This document shows, piece after piece, positions 29,849-46,864 of a DNA stretch of 51,891 bases (the first letter of the stretch is position 1; each line of letters begins with the position of its first letter). The DNA comes from Deltaproteobacteria bacterium (lineage in GTDB: Bacteria > Myxococcota > JACRCW01). The notes under the pieces were generated by a model, which saw only the letters and a list, made by a program, of their open reading frames with translations, did not search any database and had not been told where the DNA came from. The stretch spans positions 1-51,891 of the forward strand of contig JACRCW010000097.1 in assembly GCA_016218805.1 (NCBI GenBank). Reading direction: 5' to 3'. The position numbers were made by a program, and so were the translations under genes.

Positions 29849-30556
29849 TCACGCCGCTGCCGGTGAGTGCGGTGTCCACGTCCATGCGGATTCCGGTGGC
29901 ACCTGCTGCGGTCCCGTTGGGGCGTACAGGCGCGTTACCGTGCGACTGCTGTCATTGCGGTCGATCGCGACGGTCAACCGGCAGCTACCCTGGCGTGCGG
30001 GCGCGTCGGGGGCGAGTGGCTCGTACCAGCGCGTCGGAGGCGGCTCCGGCACAACATCAACGCGGTCAAGGAGCAGGTTGTTGTCCCCCGCGAACGGGAG
30101 ACCGTAGCGGTCACCGGCCAGCTCCCCGCGCAGGCCCTTCACCACGCGGTCCAAGACCACGGAATCCGTGCCGCGGACGCCGATGATGCAATCCATGTCC
30201 ACCAACAACTCCCTGCGTGTTGGCGCGATCCAGTACTTGGCCCCGTGTGTGCCCTTCGCCAGGGCCTTGCCGCTGTCCCCGACCGGGTATGTATGGAGTT
30301 GCTGGTAGAGGGAGCCGACCACACCCGCATGGTCGGGCCCTGAGCCCACCACAATGCACAACGGAGGTGCCTCAGGGTTCACCAGCGTGGTGACCCCGGA
30401 GGAATCGCCGCGGGTCTCCAGGGCCGCGAAGTTGAGCACCATGCCCCACGCCGCGCTGTGCGGAATCACGGGGCTGGTTGCCCGCCATACTCCCGCTTGC
30501 ATCCACCGGAACGCCGCGAACGGCGCCCTGATGCGCAGCCAAAGCGGCTGGTTCAC
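29849..30556 (-). CDS. cas5: Type I-MYXAN/I-B Cas5 (Cmx5/DevS)
   Basis: LRIRAPFAAFR, P.SAAWG...N, YQQLH.YPVG, KY.I.P.RRELL, RYGLPFAGDNN; GTG start overlaps the cas7 stop. Confidence 0.9.
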   Translation of the reverse strand: MNQPLWLRIRAPFAAFRWMQAGVWRATSPVIPHSAAWGMVLNFAALETRGDSSGVTTLVNPEAPPLCIVVGSGPDHAGVVGSLYQQLHTYPVGDSGKALAKGTHGAKYWIAPTRRELLVDMDCIIGVRGTDSVVLDRVVKGLRGELAGDRYGLPFAGDNNLLLDRVDVVPEPPPTRWYEPLAPDAPARQGSCRLTVAIDRNDSSRTVTRLYAPTGPQQVPPESAWTWTPHSPAAA

Positions 30557-31476
30557 GGTTTCACCCCGAGTGCCTCCTCGGACACCTCCGCAAGGAGCGC
30601 CTGCGGGTTCTCGTTCAGGTGGGCTCCCCACGCGGCGAGGTTGTCCCGGGTCTCTTTGTCCAACTGCCGCACCACCTCGCCGCCAAACCAGAACTCCTTG
30701 GGCGGCAGGTCCTTCGCTTCCTTGGTAATCCGCTTCATCTCGGCGAACTTGCCATCCGCGGTGAACGCGTACGTCTGGTAACCGGCAACGAGCTGGGGCG
30801 ACAGCCGCATGATGATGCTGCGCGGGGCGAACTCGAAGTAGCTGCGGGCGTGACCGCCCGCGACGTTCGTGAGTTCCCCGATGGCCTTCAGCAGCTTCGC
30901 GGTCCACTCCTTCTGGTCCCTCGAGCCGCTGCAGTCCTGCATGGCAAGCGCAAAGGGATACTGAAAGGCGGTGTCACTCACCTCGCGGTGCAGCAGCGCG
31001 GACGTGCTGGAGTTCTTCCAGGGACTGTCGCCCGCGTTCATGGGGGACTGGTGAAAGGTGGCATTGAACCGGTACGGATTGAGAGCGACCGCGAGATTCA
31101 TGCGGAGCACGCTGTCCCTCTTGGCCGGCTTTCCCTTGTTCTTCTTCACGGCATCCTGGTCAGCCACAAGGAACCCGAACAAGAAGTCATCTGCGAACTT
31201 GGCAGCATCCGGAAACGACTTGAACTCAACGGCGAGTTGGTCCTCCTGCTCCAGGCGCCGACGGTTCATGGACAATCCGTAGCCAGCGAGGATCTCCCTG
31301 AGCGCATTCCGCATCGCCTCCGGGCTGACGACGCCGTACTCCAGACTATCCCGGGTGATTCGCTGGATGACCGTGCGGTTCAGTTCACTTTCGCCGTGAT
31401 AGTTGGAACTCGGCGCGGCATACGTCAGCACCGTTCCGAACAGGTTCAACTTGGTCTTGTCGTTCTGCGTGGTCAT
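30553..31476 (-). CDS. cas7: Type I-B Cas7 (Cst2/DevR)
   Basis: LFGTVLT..APSSNY.GE, VSPEAMRNALRE, DD.LFGF, GGHARSYF.FAP.S; position between cas8 and cas5. Confidence 0.9.
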   Translation of the reverse strand: MTTQNDKTKLNLFGTVLTYAAPSSNYHGESELNRTVIQRITRDSLEYGVVSPEAMRNALREILAGYGLSMNRRRLEQEDQLAVEFKSFPDAAKFADDFLFGFLVADQDAVKKNKGKPAKRDSVLRMNLAVALNPYRFNATFHQSPMNAGDSPWKNSSTSALLHREVSDTAFQYPFALAMQDCSGSRDQKEWTAKLLKAIGELTNVAGGHARSYFEFAPRSIIMRLSPQLVAGYQTYAFTADGKFAEMKRITKEAKDLPPKEFWFGGEVVRQLDKETRDNLAAWGAHLNENPQALLAEVSEEALGVKP

Positions 31477-31487
31477 GTCGGCTCCTT

Positions 31488-31856
31488 TCAGGCGCGGGCG
31501 CTGAGCGCCAGCATGGTGAGGGTGCGGATGGTGTCGGGGTCGCGCAGCAAGGCGCGCGAGAGCCGGAGAAAGTCCTCCTCCGGAAGGAACTGAGGAACGC
31601 TGCACAGCGTGCTGGTGAAGTACTCTGCGAAGTCCTTCCCTGAGCGCGAGCGACAGGCAAGGAAGGCATCGAGCGCTATCTTCTGTTTCTTCTCATTGTA
31701 CTCGGCCTTCTTGGCGTCGTTCCCCTTCACATCCTCCCAACGAAGACCGTACTTGGAGGCCAACCGCCGCAACAGGTAGGCGCCCACCATGCGGTAGGCG
31801 AGGACTTCTTCCGTGGCGGTTTCCTTGGCGCCGTCATTCTGCGTGGTGGGGTCCAT
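31488..31856 (-). CDS. Putative internally translated Cas11 small subunit (122 aa), in frame within cas8
   Basis: GAGGA-ACCC-ATG in frame at the linker before the C-terminal helical domain of Cas8. Confidence 0.65.
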   Translation of the reverse strand: MDPTTQNDGAKETATEEVLAYRMVGAYLLRRLASKYGLRWEDVKGNDAKKAEYNEKKQKIALDAFLACRSRSGKDFAEYFTSTLCSVPQFLPEEDFLRLSRALLRDPDTIRTLTMLALSARA

Positions 31857-33146
31857 GGGTTCCTCGTCTGGCCGGACGTTGGCGCCGGCGGCCTTGAACG
31901 CTTCCCGCGCGTCATGCGGGAAGCGTTCCTTGGGTGAAAAGAAGACATGCTGCGGGAGCGTCCGGAACACAGGCAGGAACGCCGTGTACCAGGGCTTCCG
32001 GTCAATCAGGTTCTTCAACCGCTGCCGGCGAAAGAATGGGTTCCAGTAGGTGCCCTTGAACTGAGCGTATTGGTTGACCGCAAGCGGGTCCGGAACGACA
32101 CGGGCCAGTCCCCGCACGCGCACGTTGTTGCCCTGTTTCTCAACATGGACAACATCGATCGCCTGAACACAGGCCAGCCCGGCGGAGGCCTTGCCGATCT
32201 GCTCAGCAACCAGCGCCAGGCGCTGGAGCGTGTCCATCCCTGATTCCAATGGGAGGTCCACCAGGGCGCCGCGAGGGCGATATCCAGCTTTCTCTTTGGC
32301 GCGGGCACACATCATTGGCCCAAACGATGCGCAGAACCCCTCAAGGTCGCAGACGTCCGGGAACGCGACGGCGAAGCCAGAGAATTCGTTCTTTCCGTCA
32401 TGAGGATCCACCGTTACAGGAACATGGATCTGAATAGCAAACGGCCAGAAATGAAGGAGGAACTGGCGTTTGACGATGTCCTTCACACCGACATTCTCAG
32501 CGGTCTTTGCCTGCGCACCGAGAAAGAATGTGCTCGGCAACTCAATCGCCTGAGAAGGATGCAGCGCCAGGGCCTCGTAGAGCTCGGCGGCGTCTTTGTA
32601 CGGCTTGCCTTCGCCACGCTCCTCATAGGGCAGCCGCTGGGCCGGAATCCCGCGAAGCACTCCCCACAGCAGGTCACGCCACAACTTCACCCACAGACCG
32701 TTCTTGCCCTCCAGCGTGGGGTCCAACTCCCTGACCACGGCGCCATCCGGAACTGTCACCGGGTAGACGTAGAACGTCTTCTCAACCTCCTTGCCGCGCT
32801 TGTCGGTAACCTTGCGCTGCTCCGTACGTAGCGGCTCCTTGATGTTCTTGGCCTTGTCCTTCCATGGCTTCTCAACCGATTGCTCCTCCTCAGACGCGGC
32901 ATAGACCGCGTCCATCAACGCTTGCATTCCAGCGGCGTCGCACCTGAGCATGGCGGCATGGGCGGTCACCGAGAACTCGAGCGTCCCTGTATGCTCCTGC
33001 CGTCCCACCCATTCGGCCATCAGAACCAGCCCGGCAAGGCCGGCCCTGTGCTGTGACGTGGGAAGTTCCTCCAACGTCCATGTCACCTCCAGCACCGCCG
33101 GCAGGACCGCCTTGGCCTTGGTCTTCCTGGCAGCCTTCGCAGCCAT
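31488..33146 (-). CDS. cas8: Type I-MYXAN Cas8a1/Cmx8 (DevT) large subunit
   Basis: LPTSQHRAGLAGL, WVKLWRD..W..LRG.P, LGAQAKTAENV, FLLHFWP, C-terminal RTLTMLALSA; start ATG 33146 or GTG 33149. Confidence 0.88.
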   Translation of the reverse strand: MAAKAARKTKAKAVLPAVLEVTWTLEELPTSQHRAGLAGLVLMAEWVGRQEHTGTLEFSVTAHAAMLRCDAAGMQALMDAVYAASEEEQSVEKPWKDKAKNIKEPLRTEQRKVTDKRGKEVEKTFYVYPVTVPDGAVVRELDPTLEGKNGLWVKLWRDLLWGVLRGIPAQRLPYEERGEGKPYKDAAELYEALALHPSQAIELPSTFFLGAQAKTAENVGVKDIVKRQFLLHFWPFAIQIHVPVTVDPHDGKNEFSGFAVAFPDVCDLEGFCASFGPMMCARAKEKAGYRPRGALVDLPLESGMDTLQRLALVAEQIGKASAGLACVQAIDVVHVEKQGNNVRVRGLARVVPDPLAVNQYAQFKGTYWNPFFRRQRLKNLIDRKPWYTAFLPVFRTLPQHVFFSPKERFPHDAREAFKAAGANVRPDEEPMDPTTQNDGAKETATEEVLAYRMVGAYLLRRLASKYGLRWEDVKGNDAKKAEYNEKKQKIALDAFLACRSRSGKDFAEYFTSTLCSVPQFLPEEDFLRLSRALLRDPDTIRTLTMLALSARA

Positions 33147-35504
33147 CACGTGCTCCCTTCCACGATGAATCCCAGTTCCGTCGAATACCGTTCATCCGGG
33201 ATGATCCGAAGGTATGCGGGGAAGTCGGGCTCATCCGACCTCGCTCCAGCGCGTGCGGGTACCGGGATAATCCACTCAACCAGCGGCTTGCGCGCCCTTG
33301 CCGCCGAAACCACCGCCGGCACATCCCGCTGCCAGACGGCGCTCTCACCAAACGCATCCTCGTCACGGAAGCTGCCGGGAATGGCGTAGATGCCGCTGTC
33401 CAGGAACGTGGCGCCCGGACGGACAACGCCCTCACGGGTACCGAGTTTCTCGAGCGCCTCCGCCAAGTCGCGCTGGGACAGCCCCTCATCAGGGAGCGCG
33501 GCCAGCATGCGCTCCGCGTCCGAGATGTCCTCCTTCTGGTAGGGCAGCACCTTCTCCGGTGCATACACGATCAGTTCTGCCTGGAAGCCCGCGGGCTTTC
33601 CCTTGGTGTGGCGGTTGGCCCGTCCGAACCGCTGAACCAGCGAGGACCCCGGTGCCAGCTCCGTGACGAGGACATCCGCATCCAGGTCGAGACTCATCTC
33701 ACAGACCTGCGTCGTGACCGCGATGGCCGGCGCTGCGCCGGTCTTGAACGCGGCAACAACCTCGGCATGCCGGCGCTTGCGGTCTAACAGGCGGAACCGG
33801 CTGTGGTAGCAGAGCGGCCGTGACCCGGTCCGCGCCGCCAGTGCGGCAACCTGGGCCTGGCATCGGCCGACGGTGTTGACCACCCACAGCACGCGCTTGC
33901 CTGCCTCATGCGCGCGCACTGCGTGGTCCAACGCCTCCTCGGCTGCCCGTACGTGGCTCCGGCGATACCGCGGATGCGCCTCCGCAGCCGCCAGATCCTC
34001 AAGCTCCGAGCGCTCCTGCTCATCCGGGAAGACCTTCAGGCCCACCTCCTCCAGTTGCTTGCGTCTTGACGGCACCAGCGTGGCCGTCATGCACAGCACT
34101 GGAACGTCAAACCGCCGGAGGAACGCGACCAGGTTACGGAACATGGCCGGAGTCGAAGCTGTGCACCTCGTCGATGATCACCGCGGCATCGGCGAGGGCC
34201 GGCAGCAGGCACAGGCTCTCGTATCGGTGCTCCATGAAGGCCAGGAACTGGTCCACCGTAGCGCTGAAGTAGCGGCGGTTCCAAAGACCCAAGGCGAACA
34301 GCCGCGCCGCCGACTCATCCACGTAGTTCTTGCCGGCCGTGGCGTCGGACGGGTTCTCTTGCATTCCGGCGAGCTCGTAGGCGGCGCTCCCGTGCAGAAG
34401 CATGGCTCGGTCCTCGGGCGCGTGACCCACGTAGTCGCGGAATCCCTCGGTCGCCGTTCCACGCGTGGGATAGAGGAAGATGACCCTGCCAAGCGGACGG
34501 CTTGCCAACTGGCTCTTTGCCCAACGGTAGGCGGCCAGCGTCTTGCCTGAGCCACAACTTGCCAACAGCAACGCGCGGGACGGCTGCTCCGCAGCCAGGT
34601 CCTGGAATCGGTGCCACTCGAATGGCCGGCCCGAATGCGCGGACAGCTCCGCAGCGCGCGGTTCGAGGATCTCACGGTCGACGTCCCGGGGACTGAGCGG
34701 GGGGGCGTGAACGACTGCCTCCACCCACGCGGAAATGGACTCGTCAACCCGAAAGAGGCCGCTGGCGACAGAATCCGCAACCACCAGTCCCGCCTTGGTG
34801 GCGAGCAGCAACGACTGCCGTAGGGGGTCCGTGGCGACCTTTCCCCCGAACCCGGTTCCGGTCCCTCGCCGCACTTCTTCCGCCAGGCGCAGGCCCGCAC
34901 CCAACGCGGTGTTCCACTCGGTGTCGGGCAGCGTCCTGTCCAGAGTCCCGCCGGGAAGCAGGGGCGGCGGTTCCAGGTTCGCGACTTCGGCGACCCGGGC
35001 GAGGATGCGCGCACAGTCCGGATGATTCAGGAAGACCTTGAGCCCGCCCGCACGGCGTGGCTCGCACCACTTGTCAGGCTCGCTGGGGCCAGCCTTGAGA
35101 TGATGTGACAGAACAGCGCCCGTCAACACGCCCAGGTCCAGCGCCGCGTTGGCGGCCAGCCACGCGTTCACCACCGGCAGTTGCAGTACCAGCGCGCTGA
35201 GGTGCTCGTGGCGGAAGTACTGCGTGAGGCCATGGGTACCGCGGGTCATCGCAACGAAGTCCGCGTTCGCTTTCCCCAGATCATGGAACAGTGCGGCGAC
35301 ACGGAGGTTGATCAGCCAGCGGCCGGCGTGGTGCTCCGGGATGCGGAAGAACCGGATCCACGCCTTTCCCCACCGGCCGTCGGGTCTGAAGATGAGCCGC
35401 GCAGCTTCGTCGGTCTCCAAGCAGTGCTGGGGCAGCGGAAGAACCGCCTGGTCGGCGCGGCGCGGGCTCTTGGCGGGCAGAAAGTCCACAATTCCCCCGG
35501 TCAT
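33146..35504 (-). pseudogene. cas3: Cas3 HD nuclease-helicase interrupted by a +1 frameshift near 34146
   Basis: HD motifs (HDLGKAN, RHEHLS, SHH, ADSVAS), CGSGKT and DEVH in frame 1; MTATL, TQVCEMSLD and QRFGRANR in frame 2; total span 2359 = 3n+1. Confidence 0.88.
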
Positions 35505-36136
35505 CCACGCGCAGGTTGAAAAAGGCCGGCTCCCATGTGGCGGCGGCCGCCAAGGCCATGCCGCTGGACAGCAAGGGACGCGGTGACCGTCAACCCGTCC
35601 AGCCCCACGGCGAACCCGACCACCTTCTTGCCGGCAATGGTCATGATCCGCCGTCCCTGTTTCACCTCTGGGACAACGACGTTGATGGACTGCGGGTCCT
35701 GCCCGAGGTCCGGAGTCGCGGCAAGCTGGACACGCAACGCATCAACGAACGTGGCGCGCTCCGTGTGGTTCTTGATGGTCACGATATGCGCCTTCAGCGC
35801 CGCCACCGGCCGAACCGGCCAGATGCGGGGCGGTAGCAGCGTGATGGTGTTGCCATCCAGTTCCAGCGTCTTGCCAATCAAGGACATCAGCCCGCCCAAC
35901 TCAGTCGGCCGGATGCGCAGGGTCACCGAGGAACCCGCCCGGAGCGTGAGATGACCGCGCTCTGTCTTGACCCCACGAATGGGGTGAACGCCGAGGGAGG
36001 TCATGGAGTGGAGCGCTGGAATAATGCGGCTGAGTGCGCTGAACAGCGCATACCCGTGGTCCAGCGGAACCTTGGCGCCCTGCACCGGGAACGCGACATC
36101 CACCACTTCTTCCGCGCCAGCACTGCTGTTGCTCAT
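35501..36136 (-). CDS. cas6: Type I-MYXAN Cas6 (Cmx6)
   Basis: VDVAFPVQG..VPLDHGYALFSAL, C-terminal G-rich loop GLGGRRHMGAGLF; AGGAGG RBS before ATG 36136. Confidence 0.92.
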   Translation of the reverse strand: MSNSSAGAEEVVDVAFPVQGAKVPLDHGYALFSALSRIIPALHSMTSLGVHPIRGVKTERGHLTLRAGSSVTLRIRPTELGGLMSLIGKTLELDGNTITLLPPRIWPVRPVAALKAHIVTIKNHTERATFVDALRVQLAATPDLGQDPQSINVVVPEVKQGRRIMTIAGKKVVGFAVGLDGLTVTASLAVQRHGLGGRRHMGAGLFQPARG

Positions 36137-36159
36137 GTTTCCCCTCCTACCCGGGCGAC

Positions 36160-36178
36160 GTCTCACCTTGCATGAGAC
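36160..36178. promoter_or_regulatory. Palindromic operator-like site upstream of cas6
   Basis: GTCTCA-CCTTGCA-TGAGAC, 23 nt from the cas6 ATG; same arms as 41960-41978. Confidence 0.65.
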
Positions 36179-36353
36179 ATCCTCGTGGCAACGGACCCTA
36201 CGCACCACCGGGCCGCGCGCTCAACGTGTCCCCGCGGAAGCACCACCATGCCGATTCTGCGCAATCATTCTCCTTGCCAGGCTTTGCGGGGCCCTGGTAG
36301 AGACGCCGCGACATGAAGCTGGGCCGCATGGCCCAATGAGGGGAAACCAACCG

Positions 36354-37043
36354 ATGCGACTTCCATCCGAATCCGCGGCACCTCAGGAACGCGTGAGTTT
36401 CGGCCGCTACGTTTACACCCGTTTGAAGCGGGCCAAGTTGGAGGACCTGGCCCAGAACGTGGACGGCGCCAACAAGGCCGTGAAGGCCGCCGCCCGCGCC
36501 GTTGAAGACGCCAATGAGCCCGTGCAGGACGGGCAGGCCGTGCGTGATTCCATTGATGATGATCTTGATGATTCCGCCCAGAACTCGCGGCTTGCTCTCG
36601 GGAGCCGCTCGCTGCACGCAACCGACGAGTCGCCCTACAAGGACATCTTTCCCCGGGGAATCGAGTACTACACGGCGGCTCCGCAGGATAAGGAAGTCCA
36701 GGTTTTCAGCGAGTTCAAGCAGCGCCTGGAGACGCACCTCCCGGCGACCGATGCGGTCCGCACCACGACCGTTCCCCTGGTGACCCAGGGACTCACTGAC
36801 TACGCCGGCGCCATTGACTCCCTCACCAAGGCGCGCAACGCGCACGCCATCCTGAAGACCGCGTTGGAGACCGCTGAAGAGAGCTGGGGTCTGCTGATGG
36901 AGAAGACCTATGGCGCGTTGGTGGCGCGGTTCGGCAAGCGCAAAGCGGAGCGCTACTTCCCGCGCCGCAAGCGCGCGGAGGCCACGGAGAACGGCGGCGA
37001 AGCCAGCGAGACGCCCGTCCCCGGGACCACCACGCCGGGCTGA
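36354..37043 (+). CDS. Hypothetical all-helical protein (229 aa), divergent from cas6
   Basis: ATG after GAGGGG; GC3-biased codons; helical composition; no recognised catalytic motif. Confidence 0.8.
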   Translation: MRLPSESAAPQERVSFGRYVYTRLKRAKLEDLAQNVDGANKAVKAAARAVEDANEPVQDGQAVRDSIDDDLDDSAQNSRLALGSRSLHATDESPYKDIFPRGIEYYTAAPQDKEVQVFSEFKQRLETHLPATDAVRTTTVPLVTQGLTDYAGAIDSLTKARNAHAILKTALETAEESWGLLMEKTYGALVARFGKRKAERYFPRRKRAEATENGGEASETPVPGTTTPG

Positions 37044-37140
37044 CCCGCGCGGGTGCCAGTCCCACCTCTGCCCACCCCCAGGAACGCGCCTGATGCGGGT
37101 GGACGGTGCCGCCAGGGAGGGCGGGAAAGCCAAGCCTCGG

Positions 37141-37354
37141 ATGTGATCAAGGTGCTCCGGGGGGCCCGCGGTGGCTTGATCACATGTGATCAAGGTGCTC
37201 CGGGGCCCCTGGGCCGCGTGATCACATGTGATCAAGATGCTCCGGGGGCCCCTTGGCCATGTGATCACATGTGATCGAGGTGCTCCGGGGCCCCCTGGGT
37301 AGCTTGATCACTTGTGATCAAGGTGCGCCGGGCCCCACTGGGTACCTTGAGCAC
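37141..37354. repeat. Five tandem 42-43 bp hairpin units
   Basis: Units start at 37141, 37184, 37226, 37269 and 37312; consensus ATGTGATCAAGGTGCTCCGGGG-variable-(C/G)(T/G)TGATCAC; junctions form the palindrome TGATCACATGTGATCA. Confidence 0.92.
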
Positions 37355-37555
37355 GCTGGAAACGTGAGCAGGGTCACCCGGGACGCCGGTGGGCGAGTGC
37401 GCCCAGTCACACGAAGCGGTGCTTGCTCGCGTTGGACGGCCTGGGTCGCGGTGCGGTACCCCGCGCCAGGTCCGCAGCGCGAACTTCATGGGCCTGTGGC
37501 CGGCCCTCTGGGTGGAACGCGAGGCGGCGGGTGTGTCCCCACACGGTCAGCGGCT

Positions 37556-37713
37556 GCCCCCACCCCAGCCCTCCCCCCGCCCTCGCGTGCTGATTTCAAC
37601 CAGGCGGGGGGAGGGAGCACGGCGGAACCCCCTCCCCCCGTCGTTGCACGCCATTGCGGATGCGGATCCAGTGGGTCAGTCAGTGGCGACGGGGGGAGGG
37701 CTGGGGTGGGGGC
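37556..37713. repeat. 158-bp MITE-like element with perfect 24-bp terminal inverted repeats
   Basis: GCCCCCACCCCAGCCCTCCCCCCG (37556-37579) and its exact reverse complement (37690-37713), with two internal CCCTCCCCCCG/CGGGGGGAGGG hairpins. Confidence 0.75.
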
Positions 37714-37804
37714 TCACGGAGTTGACCATGCGGGACACACCGGAGGCGGCTCCGAGCCCGACTCCAGCGCCCCCATTCGCTGGGGTTCACTCAGCAGCGG
37801 GCCC

Positions 37805-38101
37805 TCCAGCGAAGGCTGGCCCTGACGGGTGGCGACAAGGCACGCGCGGACCGGCGGGTTGTCGACGGTGACCCCGCTGGGGCGGGGGACTACGAGGAAT
37901 CGGTCTCGACGCAGAAGGGTCCCAGAGGCTGGGTTTCCAGAACAGGTTGTTGCCCCCAGTGACCCGAGGGGGACAGCGGCCCATTCGCAGCCCATCCCTT
38001 GTAGGGCGGGGGCTTGTCCCCCGCCGGTCCAGCGAAGGGGTGGCCCTGACGGGTGGCAGCCAACCCGCGCGGACCGGCGGGTTGTCGACGATGACCCCGC
38101 T
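37805..38101. repeat. Two imperfect 74-bp direct repeats (37805-37878, 38028-38101)
   Basis: Both read TCCAGCGAAGG..TGGCCCTGACGGGTGGC....CGCGCGGACCGGCGGGTTGTCGACG.TGACCCCGCT. Confidence 0.85.
38001..38025 (+). repeat. GTAG-type REP-like palindrome, copy 2
   Basis: GTAGGGCGGGGGCTTGTCCCCCGCC. Confidence 0.6.
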
Positions 38102-38205
38102 CGGACAAGCCGCCGCCCTGCGAAGGCGAATCCCTGGTGCCGGTTCCAGTCAATGCGCGGTTGGTGATAGGGGAAGTCCGCCGGTGAACCGGCGACGGTG
38201 AGCGC

Positions 38206-39354
38206 ATGCCAGAGCCGAATGACCTGATGGGAGCCCCGTGGAGCATCACGGTCACCAACCTGCGAGCATTGCGCGACTTCCGCTGGGAGCCGCGCGGCCT
38301 GGTTCTCCTCGCCGGTCGGAACGGCGCCGGCAAGAGCACCGTGCTGAATGCGTTGGAGCTGTGCCAGACCGCCGCGGAACAGGGGCCCGGGCGCGCCATC
38401 CGAGCGCTTGGACTCTCGGGTCTGCTGACCCGGGGGCTGCCGGAGGGGACGGATGTTTCCGTTGAGCTGGCGCTGGGGACGGTGAAGTGGATCCTGACCA
38501 TCCAGTGCGAGCGTGGTGCAGCCGACCATCGTCTCGGCGAAAGGGTCCTGGACGGGAACACGGTCATTGCTGAGGTCGACGCAGGACAGGACCAGTGGCG
38601 TTTCCAGGGCACTGACCGGCCACGCCCCGAGCGCTCGCTCCTGGAATTCCTGGAGGCGCGTGACGGGATGCCATGGGCCGCCACATTCAGGGACTTTGCG
38701 CGCAACCTCCGCGTCTTCGCGGAGCCCCGGACGGACATCTTGCGACGGGTCTCACCGGGTGGAGAAACCAGCATCTCCCACAACGGCGGGGGCCTTTGGA
38801 GCGTACTGGATCGTTGGAAGCGCGCGTCCAAGAAGTACGAAGGCAGGTACGAGTGGGTCGTGCAGCAGGCGAGGAAGGCCTTCCCGGGCATCTTCCATGA
38901 CCTGGACCTTGAAGACCGCTCCCCGGGCGTTGAGGCGCGGCTCGTGCTTGATGCGGATTCATCCGACGGGTCGCTGCCCATCTACTGCGCAGCGAACGGC
39001 CTGCTGCTGGGTCTGCTCCACCTTGCAGAGGTGGCGGAATGCCCGGATGGCGGCGTGGTCGCCATCGACGAATTCGAGAACGGCCTGCATCCCGCGGCCG
39101 TGCATTCGCTGATTGAGTCCATCCGTGAACGCTGCGAAGCGCGGCATCTGACGGTGATTCTGACGACGCACTCGCCGGCGGTGATGAACCAGTTCAAGAC
39201 ACACCCGGCGGATTTCTATCTGCTGGATGCGGTTCCAGGGCCGCCCCGTCCATTGCCGACCCGCCTCACGGACTTTCACGATGAGGACTGGCTTGCGCAT
39301 TTCTCACTGGGCGACCTGTACCTCCATGGCGACATTGCGAGGCAGGGGAACTGA
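38206..39354 (+). CDS. ABC-type (AAA_15/AAA_21-like) ATPase, defence-associated type
   Basis: Walker A GRNGAGKST, Walker B IDEFENGLHP, H-loop TTHSP, C-terminal LGDLY. Confidence 0.88.
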   Translation: MPEPNDLMGAPWSITVTNLRALRDFRWEPRGLVLLAGRNGAGKSTVLNALELCQTAAEQGPGRAIRALGLSGLLTRGLPEGTDVSVELALGTVKWILTIQCERGAADHRLGERVLDGNTVIAEVDAGQDQWRFQGTDRPRPERSLLEFLEARDGMPWAATFRDFARNLRVFAEPRTDILRRVSPGGETSISHNGGGLWSVLDRWKRASKKYEGRYEWVVQQARKAFPGIFHDLDLEDRSPGVEARLVLDADSSDGSLPIYCAANGLLLGLLHLAEVAECPDGGVVAIDEFENGLHPAAVHSLIESIRERCEARHLTVILTTHSPAVMNQFKTHPADFYLLDAVPGPPRPLPTRLTDFHDEDWLAHFSLGDLYLHGDIARQGN

Positions 39355-39356
39355 GA

Positions 39357-40223
39357 ATGCGGGTGCTGCTCCTGGTGACCGGACGCGCGGAGGAGCTGGG
39401 CTTGGCCGTGTGTTTGAAGCACGCCTTTCCAGACCATGAGTTCACCACGTGGTTCGGGGATGGCTTCACGTCAAGCTGGCCCATCCCGCGCAACGCACGG
39501 GCGCCGACCAACCTCGACAAGCTCGTACAGCGGCTGGCTGCCGAGGTGGCCTGCCATGATCATGTCGTCCTGGTGGAGGACGCCGATGCGGCGTACTGGA
39601 AGGATGACATGGTGGGCCTGGTTGGCGCGGTGCGAGCCGCTGTCCGCCTTCACCTGGAGAAGACGCTGAATGATCGGATGCGGACGCGCACGGGAGACCT
39701 GCTGAAAGCGCGGGCCTCATTCCACCTCGCTGTTCCCATGCTGGAGGCATGGTTCTTCGCGGACACCGGCGCGCTTCAAGCCGCCGGGGTGCCGGCGGGC
39801 ACCGCGCAGCTTGCCAAAGCTGGTGACATTGAAGACTTCCAGACGGACGACCCCGCGTACGAGTCGGCAGACGGGGCGGAATGTGCGGCCTGGCATGCCA
39901 AGGGAGACCCGGCGAACCAGCGCCCGCAATGGCTGCGCAGCCTCCCGCGCTCGCGGCATCCCAAGGCCTACTTGAGTTGGTTGCTCCGTGCCGCGAATGA
40001 GTTGAATTGCAGCGCCTATCGGGAGACCCGCCAGGGCGTTGATGCGCTTGCCGCGCTGAACCTCCGTGCTGCGGTTGCGGCGCCCGGGCAATGCCGTTTC
40101 CTGCGGGCCCTTGTGGATGACCTCGCAGACGCCCTGGGCGCCGTTCGCCCCGAGGGAGACTGCGGGCAGTTGACCGCTCGCGCCAACCCGGACCGCCTGG
40201 ACCCCGTGCTCCGGAACATCTGA
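39357..40223 (+). CDS. TOPRIM-like / DUF4276-like ATPase partner
   Basis: 2 nt after the ATPase stop; VLLLVTG..E, VEDAD (DxD), PMLEAWFFAD, HPKAYL. Confidence 0.7.
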   Translation: MRVLLLVTGRAEELGLAVCLKHAFPDHEFTTWFGDGFTSSWPIPRNARAPTNLDKLVQRLAAEVACHDHVVLVEDADAAYWKDDMVGLVGAVRAAVRLHLEKTLNDRMRTRTGDLLKARASFHLAVPMLEAWFFADTGALQAAGVPAGTAQLAKAGDIEDFQTDDPAYESADGAECAAWHAKGDPANQRPQWLRSLPRSRHPKAYLSWLLRAANELNCSAYRETRQGVDALAALNLRAAVAAPGQCRFLRALVDDLADALGAVRPEGDCGQLTARANPDRLDPVLRNI

Positions 40224-40304
40224 CTGCGTACGCCGGGGCGACGTAGACGGACGTGGACAGCCGGCTGGAAGCGATCACCAAGCCGGCTGCTCCCGTTGGG
40301 GCTG

Positions 40305-40848
40305 TCACGGACGTCCGCCGCCTCGCGTGCCCGCGATCGCGGGGGGCAGTGGTTCGTCGGGGTGGCCGGCAATCACCGCGGTCGCACCGCACCACCGGAG
40401 ACCGCGCTTGAGATCCTGCAGGAAGGTGTTGCGGCGGACCAGGGCCCTTTGGCGAAGGACCGGGTCGGCCGACATGCGTTCCGGCACGTACAGCGCGACG
40501 ACGAGCCGCGCCCGGTCAAGGCGGGTAATGACCTGTTTTGGGAATTCGTGGCGCCCACCCACGGCCGCGCCCGCGAGTCCGGCCAGCGTGTCGCGGACCT
40601 TCTGGAGGATCTCGTCTTTTGTCGCCGCGCCAAGGCCCGGCTTTGGCAGCCTGCCAGCGGGTGAAATCCGTCACCTCCAGCAGCAGGCAGTGTCTGCCAT
40701 CAAAGGCCACAACGTCCATACTCTTGGAGCCCTCGACCTGGTCCCGTAGCGCCAGCCTCGCGGATGCGTTGTCCCAGGCGCACGCAGACCATCCGTCTGC
40801 GAAGACGAAGACCCGGCCGTCAACGTCGACCTCAAGCGGAGTGCTCAC
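40305..40848 (-). pseudogene. Frameshifted PD-(D/E)xK-like ATPase partner
   Basis: Frame 1 has G.KSMDVV..LLLEVTDF; the protein-like continuation DEILQKVRDTLAGL lies in another frame ending at 40305; span 544 = 3n+1; start overlaps the ATPase stop. Confidence 0.65.
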
Positions 40849-41900
40849 GGCTGTGCCGCCTCCCGCTGGAGGAGGGCAAGTTCCTCGCGGTGGTACGCGG
40901 CGAACTCGTCGAGCACCGGGTTGTGGGAAAGGTCCGCAGCCGTGTCCCCCGACTCCACGTCGACCATTCCGCGCGTGGCACTCAACGCGAAGAACTTCAT
41001 GGGCGGCACAGGCTGACTGCCGCGGTGCTCCGCGATGAGGGACAGGCGATGCAGCAGCAGGTAGTCATGCGTGGCAATGAACACTTGGATTCCCTGTGTT
41101 GCCAACTCAACCAGCACATCGATCACGCCGCGGACGAGGGCCGGATTCAGGTTCGCCTCGGGCTCGTCCCACAACAGGGTGCCCGACTCAGCCAGAGACC
41201 CGTTGGCGATCAGTTGGGCCAGGGAAGCCAGCTTCCGCAGACCTTCCGCGAGCAGGTGCGCTTCAAACTGGCCGGAGCCCGGTTGCGACACGTAGAAGCG
41301 CCCGCCCTTGAGGAACACCCGCCCGCCCAGCACCTTGCTCATAGGGCGCAGCAGGGCGGCGGCAGCCTCGCCTCGGGGCCCACGAAGCTGGGCGCCGGAC
41401 AACATCACGCAGAGGTCGTAGTAGGTCTCGTCGAACGACAACTCCCGGTTCTGGTACGCCGGAATGAACCCTTCAAACATCGCAAGGGCCTCGCGCGTCG
41501 GGAGGAAGACGGCCGGTGATGGCGGCACCCACGTGGCACTGCGAACCGTGACCCGGTTGCCCTTCAGGCCGATGTCAAACACGAGGCGCTTGCCATCAGC
41601 ATCAACCGCGACGGTGCCCGAGTTGCTGCCCCGCCGACGCGTCACCAGCCGACCGACGGCGCCCCCATCGGGCCGGAAGAGCCCGGCCAACTTGTTCGCA
41701 ACGAGGACATCCACCTTGGCCTGCGAGGGACCCTGCAGGTTCCGACTGCGCATGATGGAATGGCAGCCATACAGGAGCTTGAGGAGGTGGGACTTCCCAG
41801 TTCCGTTCTTCCCGATGAACACGTTGATACCGGGGGAGAACGTGAGTTCCGCCCCGGAAAACACCGTGAAGCTGTTCAGCCTGACGGACGTGATGGGCAT
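40845..41900 (-). CDS. Second ABC-type (AAA_15/AAA_21-like) ATPase
   Basis: GINVFIGKNGTGKS, AEGLRKL, WDEPEANLNP, ATHDY; start ATG 41900. Confidence 0.88.
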   Translation of the reverse strand: MPITSVRLNSFTVFSGAELTFSPGINVFIGKNGTGKSHLLKLLYGCHSIMRSRNLQGPSQAKVDVLVANKLAGLFRPDGGAVGRLVTRRRGSNSGTVAVDADGKRLVFDIGLKGNRVTVRSATWVPPSPAVFLPTREALAMFEGFIPAYQNRELSFDETYYDLCVMLSGAQLRGPRGEAAAALLRPMSKVLGGRVFLKGGRFYVSQPGSGQFEAHLLAEGLRKLASLAQLIANGSLAESGTLLWDEPEANLNPALVRGVIDVLVELATQGIQVFIATHDYLLLHRLSLIAEHRGSQPVPPMKFFALSATRGMVDVESGDTAADLSHNPVLDEFAAYHREELALLQREAAQP

Positions 41901-41959
41901 GGGCGCCTCGTCCCATATGCGAAGGAAGGCAGTCAACGAGCCACGCCGGGCGCCTGGGC

Positions 41960-41978
41960 GTCTCACGGATCATGAGAC
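41960..41978. promoter_or_regulatory. Palindromic operator-like site upstream of cas1 and the divergent ATPase
   Basis: GTCTCA-CGGATCA-TGAGAC, 22 nt from the cas1 ATG. Confidence 0.65.
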
Positions 41979-42000
41979 GGGAGCCTGCCAGCCTGACCGC

Positions 42001-43674
42001 ATGTCCACCACCCCGGCCCCCCAGGACGACCGTGCTCCCATATTCCGCGTGATGGCGCTGCACGCGCTCGTGTACTGCGAACGGCTCTTCTACCTGGAGG
42101 AGGTGGAGGAGATCCGAGTCGCCGATGAAGCGGTGTGGGCCGGCCGCGCGCTCCACGAGGAACTTGAAGAACCCGCCGAAGTGGTGGACCTGACGTTGGA
42201 GTCCGCGGCGCTGGGGCTCAAGGGGCGGGTGGATGCGCTGCGCCACCGCGACGGCACGGTCTTCCCGGTGGAACACAAGCGCGGCCGTTCCCGGCGCATG
42301 GGGAAGGACCCGCCGCAGGCCTGGCCATCGGACCGGGTGCAGGCGGTGGCGTACGCCATGCTGCTGGAGGAACACCTGGGCCGCCCGGTGGCTGAAGCCC
42401 GCATCCGCTACCACCGCGACAACGTCACCGTTCGTGTCCCCGTGGAAGAACGCACGCGGCGCGAAGTGCTGGACACCATCCAGCGCGCACGTGTGGTCAC
42501 CGCCCTCCCTCAGCGGCCGCCCGTGACGGAGGATGAGCGCGTCTGCGTGCGGTGTTCGCTGGCGCCCGTGTGCCTGCCGGAGGAGAGCCGCGCCGCCCAG
42601 GAGGGCCCCGACCACGACCCCTCCCTCACGCCGCTGCGGTTGTTCCCACCGGATACCGACCGGCGCAGCCTCCACATCGTCCGGCATGGCGCGCGGGTCG
42701 GTCGGTCGGGGGAGAACCTGGTGGTCAGCGAGGGGTTTGATGAGGTGCAGCGGATTGGCGTGCGGGAGGTGGGTGACGTCTGCCTCCACGGGTTTGCCCA
42801 GGTCACCGCGCAGGCACTCCGCCTCTGTGCGGACGAAGGCATCCCGGTCCACCTGCTCACCAGCAGCGGCAGCCACATCGGCATGTTCGCCGGCCACCAC
42901 GGTGGCGTGCAGCGGCGCTTGCGGCAGTACGCGGGCCTGTCCAAGGAAGAACTGGTGGTCTCCCTGGCCCGCAAGCTGCTCGCCGCCAAGGTGGAGATGC
43001 AACTGCGGCACGTGCTGCGCGCGTCCCGCGAGGAGGAAACCGTCCGCGCGCGGCTGGTGGACCCCATCAGCGTGATGCGTCGCAGCCTTTCCGGTGTCCA
43101 CCGCGCCACGGACCGCGCCGGCATGATGGGCCACGAAGGCGCTGCGGCGCGCGCCTACTGGTCCGCGCTGGGCGAGCTTGTGCTCCCGGACGCCGGCGAG
43201 GAACTGCGCCCCAAGGGTCGCACCCATCGGCCTCCCAAGGACCGGTTCAATGCGCTGCTGTCGTTCGGGTATGGCCTGCTCTACCGGGACATCCTGAGCG
43301 CGCTCATCCGCGTGGGGTTGGAACCCGCGCTCGGCGTGCTGCACCAGCCGCGCAGCGCCGCGTGGCCGCTCGCGCTGGACCTCATGGAGCTGTTCCGTGT
43401 CCCCGTGGTGGACATGGCGGTGCTGGGCGCCGTGAACCGGAAGACGTTTGACGTGAAGGCGGACTTCCAGATCGCGGGACCGCGCGTTTGGCTGAGTGAT
43501 GAAGGGCGTAAGAAGTTCATTGCCGTCTATGAACGCCGCAAACACGAGGAATACCGGCACACGGTGCTGGGGTACTCGCTGTCCTACGCGAGGATGATGG
43601 AACTGGAGGCGCGGCTGATGGAGAAGGAGTGGAGCGGAGAACCCAACGTGTTTGCACGTTTCAGGATCCGGTGA
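42001..43674 (+). CDS. cas1: Cas4-Cas1 fusion (type I-MYXAN)
   Basis: Cas4 part: YCERLF, G.VD, VEHKRG, CVRCSLAPVC. Cas1 part: GHEGAAARAY, NALLSFGY, G.LH, LALDLMELFR. Confidence 0.95.
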   Translation: MSTTPAPQDDRAPIFRVMALHALVYCERLFYLEEVEEIRVADEAVWAGRALHEELEEPAEVVDLTLESAALGLKGRVDALRHRDGTVFPVEHKRGRSRRMGKDPPQAWPSDRVQAVAYAMLLEEHLGRPVAEARIRYHRDNVTVRVPVEERTRREVLDTIQRARVVTALPQRPPVTEDERVCVRCSLAPVCLPEESRAAQEGPDHDPSLTPLRLFPPDTDRRSLHIVRHGARVGRSGENLVVSEGFDEVQRIGVREVGDVCLHGFAQVTAQALRLCADEGIPVHLLTSSGSHIGMFAGHHGGVQRRLRQYAGLSKEELVVSLARKLLAAKVEMQLRHVLRASREEETVRARLVDPISVMRRSLSGVHRATDRAGMMGHEGAAARAYWSALGELVLPDAGEELRPKGRTHRPPKDRFNALLSFGYGLLYRDILSALIRVGLEPALGVLHQPRSAAWPLALDLMELFRVPVVDMAVLGAVNRKTFDVKADFQIAGPRVWLSDEGRKKFIAVYERRKHEEYRHTVLGYSLSYARMMELEARLMEKEWSGEPNVFARFRIR

Positions 43675-43677
43675 CCC

Positions 43678-43974
43678 ATGGCAGAACCGCGACACTGGCA
43701 TCTGGTGATGTACGACGTCAGCGGCCCGGCGATTCTCCGCCAGGTCCACAAGAAGCTGAGCGCTTGGGGGAAGCCCGTGCAGTTATCCGTGTTCCGCGTC
43801 CGCTGCACCGCGCGGGAACTGGAGCAGTTGCGGTTTGAGCTGGCGAAGATCATGGGAGAGGAGGACCGCCTGATGGTCGTCCGCCTGTGCCCCGGTTGCG
43901 CAGCGCGGGTCATGGTGCGTGGCGACATCCCCGCGCCGTTCGAAGAGGACACCGCGCCGTTCATCATGGTATGA
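43678..43974 (+). CDS. cas2: Cas2
   Basis: LVMYDVS, WGKPVQLSVF, EDRL; 98 aa directly after cas1. Confidence 0.95.
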   Translation: MAEPRHWHLVMYDVSGPAILRQVHKKLSAWGKPVQLSVFRVRCTARELEQLRFELAKIMGEEDRLMVVRLCPGCAARVMVRGDIPAPFEEDTAPFIMV

Positions 43975-44219: not shown

Positions 44220-45848
44220 GTGAATCCTTCCTTGATGCCGGAAGGCGTTGAGCACCGGAACCGCCTCTACCAGCGTTTCCCCGAGAACTACCGTGAATCC
44301 TTCCTTGATGCCGGAAGGCGTTGAGCACCTGCAGCGGCAGTTGGGATGCAGTGGTGGGCGCAGAACAGTGAATCCTTCCTTGATGCCGGAAGGCGTTGAG
44401 CACCGGCACGCGTGACACAGCGTTGTCTGCGTCGTGTGGTGAATCCTTCCTTGATGCCGGAAGGCGTTGAGCACCACGCGGAGGCGGCGAGGTTCTGCGC
44501 GTGGCTCAAGAGTGAATCCTTCCTTGATGCCGGAAGGCGTTGAGCACCCCGTTCCAGAAAACGTTCCGAGGCAGTCAAAAAAGAGAGTGAATCCTTCCTT
44601 GATGCCGGAAGGCGTTGAGCACATTGCCGCCTCCGCATCCCGAGCTTCCGCAGCGTATGTGAATCCTTCCTTGATGCCGGAAGGCGTTGAGCACAACGGC
44701 CGCGCAAGAGTGCTCCGCCGCCGCAGCAGCAGTGAATCCTTCCTTGATGCCGGAAGGCGTTGAGCACGAAACGGAACGCCGCTGTATGTACGTAGCGATG
44801 ACGTGAATCCTTCCTTGATGCCGGAAGGCGTTGAGCACACAGACTTTGAGCACGTGTTTCCTGTAGATCTTGAGTGAATCCTTCCTTGATGCCGGAAGGC
44901 GTTGAGCACCGTGCGACGGCGCGGCGTGCCCGCAGGCGTTCAACTTGTGAATCCTTCCTTGATGCCGGAAGGCGTTGAGCACCTGATGGAGATGGACAAC
45001 GACGCCGGAATCACGGGTGAATCCTTCCTTGATGCCGGAAGGCGTTGAGCACAAAGTCGTAACAATAGATAGGACCCTCCACCCGGGTGAATCCTTCCTT
45101 GATGCCGGAAGGCGTTGAGCACGAGAATGGTTGGATTTGGTCACTTGGGAAGGTGACGTGAATCCTTCCTTGATGCCGGAAGGCGTTGAGCACTTCACGA
45201 TGACGTCTCCGCCACCACCTCCACCACTTCCGGTGAATCCTTCCTTGATGCCGGAAGGCGTTGAGCACTCGGTGAGCTGGGGTGAGGAGGAGAACTCCAC
45301 CGGGTAGGTGAATCCTTCCTTGATGCCGGAAGGCGTTGAGCACACAGGACAGGACACCACCATGACCACGATGAGCTACCGTGAATCCTTCCTTGATGCC
45401 GGAAGGCGTTGAGCACGCGCGCGGCGGGGCCCAGCGCGCCTCTTGGTGCCAGTGAATCCTTCCTTGATGCCGGAAGGCGTTGAGCACCAACTGGCGCATC
45501 GCCCGGTCCACTGCCCGTATCGTCGTGAATCCTTCCTTGATGCCGGAAGGCGTTGAGCACATGCGCCACGTTGCCGTGATTGTCCTCGCTGGTGTGCGTG
45601 AATCCTTCCTTGATGCCGGAAGGCGTTGAGCACACGGAGGGAATTGCAACGCGCGCGGATTCACACCTGTGAATCCTTCCTTGATGCCGGAAGGCGTTGA
45701 GCACACGACGACAACGACGACCGCCACCACCACCACCACGTGAATCCTTCCTTGATGCCGGAAGGCGTTGAGCACCGCCTGCGCGCGCTGCGTGACGCGG
45801 GGCTTGTTACGGGTGAATCCTTCCTTGATGCCGGAAGGCGTTGAGCAC
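44220..45848 (+). CRISPR. CRISPR array: 23 identical 36-bp repeats, 22 spacers of 34-39 bp
   Basis: Repeat GTGAATCCTTCCTTGATGCCGGAAGGCGTTGAGCAC; the TTGATGCCG..AGGCGTTGAGCAC 3' half is typical of Cmx8-type I-B repeats. Confidence 0.99.
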
Positions 45849-45916: not shown

Positions 45917-46864
45917 CTACTCGCCATAGTGGGAGAGCGCCGCCGCGAGCTCCTTCCTCACCTTCACGCGCAACTCGGGTGGTTCCAGCACCTCCGCCTT
46001 GGCTCCCCAGTTGAGAACCCAGTGCGTGACCTCCTGCAAGCCGGCCACGGTGGCGCGCACCACGGCGCCCCCGTCCGCCTGCCGCTCCACCTGCTGGTCA
46101 TCGGTGAGCGGCCACTCGTTGACGAACCGCCCGCCGCTCGGATCGATGCGAACCGCGACTGCGACCGAGGGCGCGTTCCACACGCCGACGCTGTGCGCGA
46201 ACAGCTTCTCCGCGTCATAGCCCTCGCGGTGCGGGGCCTTCTCCGGGAGGAGGACCACGTCCGCCGCGCGTGAGGGCTTGAACACGCGCCAACCTCCGCT
46301 GAGGCGGTCCCAGGCTGTGACGTAGAGTTGTTGGTGCACCATGCGCATTTCACGTGGTTCCACGATGCGTTCGGACGGGGAGAACGCGCTGGCGGACTGG
46401 TAGAGCAGGCGGACGCAGCGCCGCTCGGCGGCGGCGCGGTCCAGGAAGGTGACCACCTCCGGCCGGGCGGAGGCGGTTCCGGCACCGCCCACCGTGAGTG
46501 GGACGTTGGCGGGGGCGTTCTTCGCATACTGCCGGACCAGACCATCCAGTTCCTTGAACGCCTGCGTGCCGCGCAGGGGTTCCGCGGCATTGCGCAGGAC
46601 AATGAGCGCGGTGAGCTGGAGTGGCGTGGGTTTCAGCGGTGGGACGTCCCAGTCCAGGAGGTAGCGGGTCTCGCCGTTGACCACCTCCGTGGTGATGGGG
46701 ATCTGGGTGTCCATGAGGAGCTGGATATCCCGGTATGCCGTGGCGCGGCTGATGCCGGCGCGTTCGGCGAGTTGTTCGGCACGGAGGCCACGGCGGACGG
46801 TGCTGAGTTCCCGCACGTGGCACAGGATGCGGGTGATGATGGCGCGGCTCTGGGTTCGGGGCAT
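45917..46864 (-). CDS. HTH-WYL-WCX transcriptional regulator
   Basis: wHTH LAERAGISRATAYRDIQLL; WYL core Y.S..RIVEP..LYVTAWD...WRVFK.SR; C-terminal WVLNWG.AEVLEPPELR; start ATG 46864. Confidence 0.92.
   Translation of the reverse strand: MPRTQSRAIITRILCHVRELSTVRRGLRAEQLAERAGISRATAYRDIQLLMDTQIPITTEVVNGETRYLLDWDVPPLKPTPLQLTALIVLRNAAEPLRGTQAFKELDGLVRQYAKNAPANVPLTVGGAGTASARPEVVTFLDRAAAERRCVRLLYQSASAFSPSERIVEPREMRMVHQQLYVTAWDRLSGGWRVFKPSRAADVVLLPEKAPHREGYDAEKLFAHSVGVWNAPSVAVAVRIDPSGGRFVNEWPLTDDQQVERQADGGAVVRATVAGLQEVTHWVLNWGAKAEVLEPPELRVKVRKELAAALSHYGE

Follow-up and report, generated by a model that had tools for sequence, protein, structure and literature searches.

A split CRISPR-Cas locus with a palindrome before each half

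Positions 1 to 51,891 of contig JACRCW010000097.1 from a deltaproteobacterium (assembly GCA_016218805.1), the 51,891-nucleotide stretch analysed here and referred to as the window, carry a split CRISPR-Cas locus that sequence comparison assigns to type I-MYXAN, the Cmx8 variant of type I-B. Cmx8, Cas6/Cmx6 and Cas1-MYXAN all score above their curated cut-offs and an array is present. The genes cas6, cas3, cmx8, cas7 and cas5 run leftward; cas4-cas1, cas2 and the array run rightward and are followed by a convergent gene for a WYL-domain regulator. In front of each half stands one copy of the palindrome GTCTCA-N7-TGAGAC, and it is these two sites, and the protein that would bind them, that we consider here.

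29849-33149, minus strand: cas8 (cmx8), cas7 and cas5; TIGR04413 above cut-off
33146-35504, minus strand: cas3, split just past the DEVH motif into two frames, 34134-35504 and 33146-34144
35501-36136, minus strand: cas6/cmx6, first gene of the interference operon; TIGR02807 above cut-off
36160-36178, no strand: palindrome copy 1, GTCTCA-N7-TGAGAC, predicted as a likely WYL binding site in the cas6 promoter
41960-41978, no strand: palindrome copy 2, GTCTCA-N7-TGAGAC, predicted as a likely WYL binding site in the cas4-cas1 promoter
42001-43974, plus strand: cas4-cas1 fusion and cas2, the adaptation half; TIGR03983 above cut-off
44220-45848, plus strand: CRISPR array with 23 repeats and 22 spacers
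45917-46864, minus strand: WYL regulator of 315 amino acids (winged helix-turn-helix, helical bundle, WYL, WCX), DriD/PafBC-like, the likely binder of both sites (predicted)

The first-pass annotation of this DNA had placed the two palindromes in divergent intergenic regions close to the cas start codons, and this was confirmed in every detail. The 20-mers at the two copies are identical at 16 of 20 bases, and the arms of copy 1 extend imperfectly to 9 bp. Copy 1 lies 23 nt from the cas6 ATG and 175 nt from the open reading frame that starts at 36354 on its other side; copy 2 lies 22 nt from the cas4-cas1 ATG and 59 nt from the ATG of an ATPase gene (41900), so that both copies sit between divergent genes.

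A genome-wide scan found two exact copies in 6,433,327 bases, both in this locus, where 0.068 would be expected from hexamer counts. Seven further sites in the genome differ by one mismatch, and none of these has the downstream Y-A dinucleotide described below. At up to two mismatches the window holds two sites against a chance mean of 1.16, which is not above chance, so the significance of the pair rests on its exactness, its placement and its conservation. The genomes G001, G068 and G401 contain exactly one exact copy each, all at a locus with WYL and cas genes; genomes G124 and G402 contain none. We found no wider regulon in the genome of the window, where, among 253 oriented N7 sites having two mismatches at most, 23 are followed by the Y-A, about the background rate. 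Nor is there a copy in the stretch preceding the CRISPR array or upstream of the window's own WYL gene, where the best match has four mismatches. One 20-nt exact match to copy 1 and its cas6-side flank, at 5228-5247 of contig C72 (L137), lacks both the Y-A and any WYL or cas gene match and was set aside as chance or unexplained; it adjoins an antitoxin-like gene, a resolvase and an integrase.

The palindrome follows one clade of WYL proteins

A large share of the 80 cas1 loci fetched contain a WYL match. The comparison of loci with and without such a gene covered 113 loci (L021-L136 minus L022, L126 and L127), a site being counted at up to one mismatch with a spacer of 6 or 7 nt. WYL genes were called close at 120 tblastn bits or more, with the partial L133 added by hand, and loci were called WYL-free when none was found in the fetched stretch. 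The site is present in 9/11 loci with a close WYL (7/9 when two near-duplicate pairs of loci are each counted once), in 0/49 with a distant WYL and in 1/53 without a WYL. The last is L070, whose one-mismatch site lacks the Y-A and was rejected. The close loci span type I-B, type I-G and non-CRISPR systems, and the conclusion that the site goes with the WYL protein rather than with the cas genes is well supported by these sequence comparisons. The first-pass proposal that the palindrome is the site of the protein encoded at 45917-46864, for both the interference and the adaptation half, gains good support from the same co-occurrence.

The position of the site also recurs. In G001, a genome of the same family, the layout is likewise divergent with different genes between the halves; an exact copy overlaps the WYL stop codon before cas1 and a one-mismatch copy precedes cas6. 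In the unsplit operons of L026 and L128 the site lies between the WYL gene and cas6, in two tandem copies in L026, and none precedes cas1. In L106 and L110 it lies between the WYL gene and a type I-G cas3. As a held-out check we scanned 401 genomes starting from the motif, of which nine matched, three of them already known. Among the others was G246, where the site stands at the start of an operon and the genome's best homologue of the window WYL follows about 2.5 kb further on. This unannotated operon (L154:9397-12666) encodes three small proteins, an IetA-like AAA ATPase and the clade WYL, with insertion sequence elements on its flanks, and is a candidate defence system. A scan of metagenome contigs with a single protein gave 67 pattern matches, none of which was confirmed. 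A tblastn search of plasmids turned up only distant WYL matches among the 12 listed rows (61 records in all), with identities of 26-28%.

A tree of 48 WYL rows, made after dropping 12 duplicate or partial rows and everything shorter than 270 amino acids, places the nine site-bearing proteins in one clade (support 94/94) with a common helix, R-A-T-x-Y-R-D. The other two members of the enclosing 11-row clade (100/99) have no site and a changed recognition helix. A second clade of six rows (98/94) is accompanied at the same position by a different palindrome, GTGAC-N7-GTCAC. Its sites precede cas6 with an extended -10 of the TGnTA type after 10 nt, the TA falling at that offset in 7/8 copies from seven loci (L055:3350, L038:3164, L056:3935, L057:3239, L039:3476, L034:3594 and L062:2672 and 3563). 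Two further clade-specific N7 palindromes were seen just after a WYL gene and before cas6, CTGATC/GATCAG at L081:3890, with CATGAT at 10 nt, and TGAGGA/TCCTCA at L082:2328.

It might be asked whether some other factor owns the sites. The genome encodes a second WYL protein, on contig C44, and the same 6-bp arms recur in it with a 5-nt spacer (N5) 18 times, 17 of them inside a longer, 27-bp intergenic palindrome with the consensus AAAGTGTCTCATTAAATGAGACACTTT. This N5 element is often paired, for example at C42:13397 and 13631, C72:32255 and 32429, and C97:20300 and 20610. It is absent from G001, G068 and G401, all of which have the N7 site, and we treat it for this reason as a separate element, either a repeat or the site of some other regulator; an exact search for its core in four other genomes found nothing, with a single core match in G124. 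The C44 protein is 27% identical to the window WYL and sits on a long branch of the tree away from the clade, and the site keeps to the WYL gene of its locus across distant genomes. We consider ownership by the N5 binder or by the C44 protein quite improbable.

Promoter geometry and the class of the regulator

The two halves share a predicted promoter element at a fixed distance from the palindrome.

36144-36149, minus strand: predicted weak -10 hexamer TAGGAG, 10 nt from copy 1 and 7 nt before the cas6 ATG, assigned from positional conservation
41989-41994, plus strand: predicted weak -10 hexamer CAGCCT, 10 nt from copy 2 and 6 nt before the cas4-cas1 ATG

In G001 the hexamer CAGCCT is identical at the same offset. 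More generally, a Y-A dinucleotide starts exactly 10 nt past the right arm on 8/9 gene-facing sides of N7 sites against 1/9 in reverse, the background being 0.08 and the related loci not being independent. At the nine sites with a Y-A every hexamer has exactly two of T-12, A-11 and T-7, and the third base ahead of the left arm is always G. The best match to a -35 is at most 3/6 in eight of them, with no conserved -35 in the spacer. From this positional conservation we infer that the Y-A belongs to a weak -10 box. The distances of 7 and 6 nt between the window hexamers and the start codons would suggest leaderless transcripts. In the promoters of PafBC, TGTCGG-N10-TANNNT, 10 nt separate the element from the -10. 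A palindrome that covers a missing -35 at a fixed distance before a weak, predicted -10 has, on sequence, the geometry of the activators DriD and SiwR.

The protein itself points in the same direction. Pfam recognises HTH_11, WYL and WCX in the window WYL, and a structure model (pLDDT 85.7, pTM 0.53) places helices 81-114 between the winged helix-turn-helix and the WYL domain, the layout expected of DriD, PafBC and SiwR activators of about 310-330 amino acids. Against the Protein Data Bank, a five-sequence profile matched PafBC and DriD with E values of 1e-25 to 1e-15, and BrxR and CapW with 6e-6 to 6e-4 in the WYL region only. Foldseek ranked the complexes of DriD with single-stranded DNA and DNA best (E 2e-18, TM 0.59), with PafBC also at the top, and CapW and BrxR at about 1e-8 and TM 0.30-0.35. 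The model is thus best matched by the DriD/PafBC fold and not by BrxR/CapW. Of six PafB residues in the groove for single-stranded DNA, four have an identical counterpart by spacing (R166, Y181, R193 and R199 for R181, Y196, R208 and R214), one is replaced by Lys and one by Ser.

The first-pass annotation had taken the repressors BrxR and CapW as its models, most likely the wrong class given these matches and a site that covers the missing -35 and lies 10 nt ahead of a weak -10. The corresponding alternative reverses the sign: the WYL protein would act as a repressor of both promoters, blocking the -35 or a promoter that lies further upstream until released by single-stranded DNA, as with BrxR, CapW and Sll7009. 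The co-occurrence evidence fits this equally well, most defence-linked WYL proteins described to date are repressors (PMC9122601, PMC11662680), and in G246 the site heads an operon that includes the WYL gene itself. Against it stand the DriD/PafBC-like sequence and fold and the position of the site, which is upstream of the -10 whereas the BrxR box is downstream. Moreover, the promoters offer a repressor only a weak -10 and no good -35, and the window's own WYL gene has no site upstream of it. Repression therefore seems unlikely to us, and activation remains our preferred reading.

Genes between the two halves

36179-41959, no strand: lineage-specific cargo between the sites, comprising the open reading frame 36354-37043, repeats at 37141-38126 and two ABC ATPase pairs

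The open reading frame 36354-37043 encodes a helical hypothetical protein of a family without Pfam annotation; we compared it with the intervening open reading frame of G001 and found the two not to be homologous. Downstream of it, at 37141-37354, lie tandem units of 42-43 nt, each around the palindrome TGATCACATGTGATCA. At 37528-38126 stand a perfect inverted repeat of 24 bp, which recurs on several other contigs, and after it a pair of 39-nt direct repeats. Two convergent modules of an ABC ATPase and a partner are then embedded in the CRISPR-Cas locus (38206-41900). The pair at 38206-40223 is HEC-01-like by a weak match, and the pair at 40516-41900 is HEC-02-like (ATPase E 3e-91); the HEC-01 and HEC-02 systems are described in bioRxiv 2024.01.29.577857.

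The palindrome probably does not control this cargo. Copy 2 has no -10-like signal toward the ATPase, and copy 1, though the more symmetric copy, has toward ORF 36354 only the poor hexamer CAACGG with one key -10 base. The earlier suggestion that the inserted genes are co-regulated thus finds no support.

The first-pass annotation had also offered a second view of the two copies, as a duplicated target site or a recombination core on either side of a 5.8-kb insert, which would then be mobile. Removing the DNA between them would indeed leave a compact divergent region, the spacers agree at 3/7 bases in plus orientation, and a site of the other clade was in fact duplicated in L062, by an insertion that separates the WYL gene from cas6. 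The relatives argue otherwise: G001 has its two sites around unrelated genes, and the unsplit loci L026 and L128 carry the site as well. In the window the flanks of the two copies agree at 8/20 and 8/20, about chance, the predicted -10 boxes face outward in opposite directions, and no recombinase is annotated among the insert reading frames scanned. No joint of site 1 to site 2 was seen in the contigs of four DNA runs from one study, although contigs cannot show absence. With unrelated flanks, freely varying spacers and relatives that keep their sites regardless of content, the duplication reading fails, and we rejected it as very improbable.

A predicted single-stranded DNA switch

Taken together, we propose that both palindromes are activator sites of the locus WYL protein for the cas6 and cas4-cas1 promoters, with binding predicted from sequence, the structure model and analogy, and we put the probability of this at roughly three in four. 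That the locus WYL is the binder, whether as activator or repressor, is very likely. The original assignment would then be largely right, in the binder and in the two cas halves, and most likely reversed in its repressor sign, with the inserted genes falling outside it.

In the mechanism we envisage, a WYL homodimer would bind single-stranded DNA, from phage replication, DNA damage or degradation by Cas3, in its WYL domains, and this would free the winged-helix domains. The dimer would dock on the palindrome over the -35 position and recruit housekeeping RNA polymerase to the weak -10, giving transcripts that in this genome are probably leaderless or have a short leader. In unsplit relatives one cluster of sites between the WYL gene and cas6 would head the whole operon; in the split locus each divergent half has its own site, so that interference and adaptation would be induced together, with the 5.8-kb cargo as a passenger between two promoters. 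It is possible, as speculation, that a tandem pair as in L026 was the source of the two sites.

Several observations weigh against this reading, besides the near-duplicate loci allowed for above. The tree labels were set by eye and the clade support of 94 is below the starred threshold. Two close-WYL loci have no site, L129 with its changed recognition helix and the partial L133, and five of the nine motif-first matches (G344, G353, G264, G127 and G080) were dismissed as unrelated, with neither a WYL nor a cas gene inside 1.5 kb. The one N7 site of nine without a Y-A is the distal tandem copy in L026; of three N6 sites outside that count one has a Y-A, and the two in L105 do not. The -10 boxes are weak and assigned from positional conservation alone, TAGGAG before cas6 overlaps GGAGG, a plausible ribosome-binding site, and a site over the -35 can also repress. 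In the basic patch of the protein K196 stands for PafB R211 and S189 for PafB R204. Finally, an intact cas3 is expected of type I-MYXAN, and in the window the gene lies in two frames that overlap at 34134-34144. It is a single frame in 69/69 relatives with both parts matched, and a second sample of the same study gave a low-depth contig that is identical across the break. A search for a self-targeting spacer that might explain the break found none, the best partial match being 23/24 nt. With cas3 frameshifted, part of the circuit may no longer work in this strain.

A wider reading, which we hold only tentatively and would sooner doubt than accept, is that WYL gene, 3' palindrome and weak -10 form a portable cassette, an on-switch triggered by single-stranded DNA for type I CRISPR-Cas and other defence operons, with a matched palindrome in each clade. 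Since Cas3 makes single-stranded DNA, such a cassette would close a feed-forward loop, raising spacer acquisition and interference at the same time, and this may be why both halves of the split locus keep the site.

WYL genes beside many type I cas operons are usually assumed to encode repressors, by analogy with Sll7009, BrxR and CapW. The role of CRISPR-associated WYL proteins becomes directly testable now that specific sites, a constant promoter geometry and two clades that differ in their palindromes are at hand. If the proposal is true, many type I loci would be kept low by weak promoters and switched on by single-stranded DNA, which would matter for expressing such loci outside their host.

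Comparison with known WYL regulators

The WYL family has been divided into activators and repressors (PMC11662680). BrxR, CapW and Synechocystis Sll7009, which represses a type I-D CRISPR locus (PMC9122601), resemble the window WYL as defence-locus regulators that bind inverted repeats at defence promoters (PMC9122601, PMC11662680). BrxR differs in being a repressor whose box, with 11-bp arms and a 5-bp spacer, lies downstream of the -10 (PMC9122601). The window WYL has neither the sequence and fold of this type nor an operator in its own promoter downstream of the -10, G246 being a partial exception.

The closest likeness is to DriD of Caulobacter crescentus, which has the same fold of winged helix-turn-helix, three helices, WYL and WCX. 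Its palindrome, ATACGAC-N7-GTCGTAT, lies where the -35 is missing and keeps a fixed distance to a weak -10; bound there, DriD recruits RNA polymerase (PMC13004042). In our reading of the promoters printed there, the hexamers CAATCT and CAAGGT stand 8 nt past the arm, which fits the 17-bp spacing of the engineered -35 in that work; the distance from centre to hexamer is then 18.5 bp for these CA-starting hexamers and 19.5 bp here. DriD differs in its arms (ATACGAC/GTCGTAT), in an identity of about 20% and in serving a DNA-damage regulon rather than being a dedicated CRISPR-Cas regulator. PafBC of mycobacteria belongs to the same class (PMC11804915), and most of its basic residues for single-stranded DNA have a counterpart here by spacing; it is, however, a heterodimer that acts through a non-palindromic element on a global DNA-damage regulon. 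SiwR of Mycobacterium smegmatis is a homodimeric local activator whose 19-bp palindrome precedes the -10 of the adjoining operon (PMC10693628). Its targets are dinB-like genes, its motif is another and its site is found at the 5' end of siwR, in the gap separating divergent genes, unlike the site described here, which usually comes after the WYL stop codon.

In the open-access literature, searched by titles and abstract openings, we found no report of the palindrome or of a locus-encoded DriD-type activator of type I-B or I-G loci. WYL activation of CRISPR-Cas as such is already in print, for DdaA of Moraxellaceae, which raises expression of type I-F CRISPR-Cas and restriction-modification under DNA damage (PMC12392091). 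DdaA is a global regulator that replaces SOS and its site lies about 50 bp upstream of the start site (PMC12392091), whereas the window WYL is encoded in the locus, has one or two sites per genome and travels with type I-B and I-G loci.

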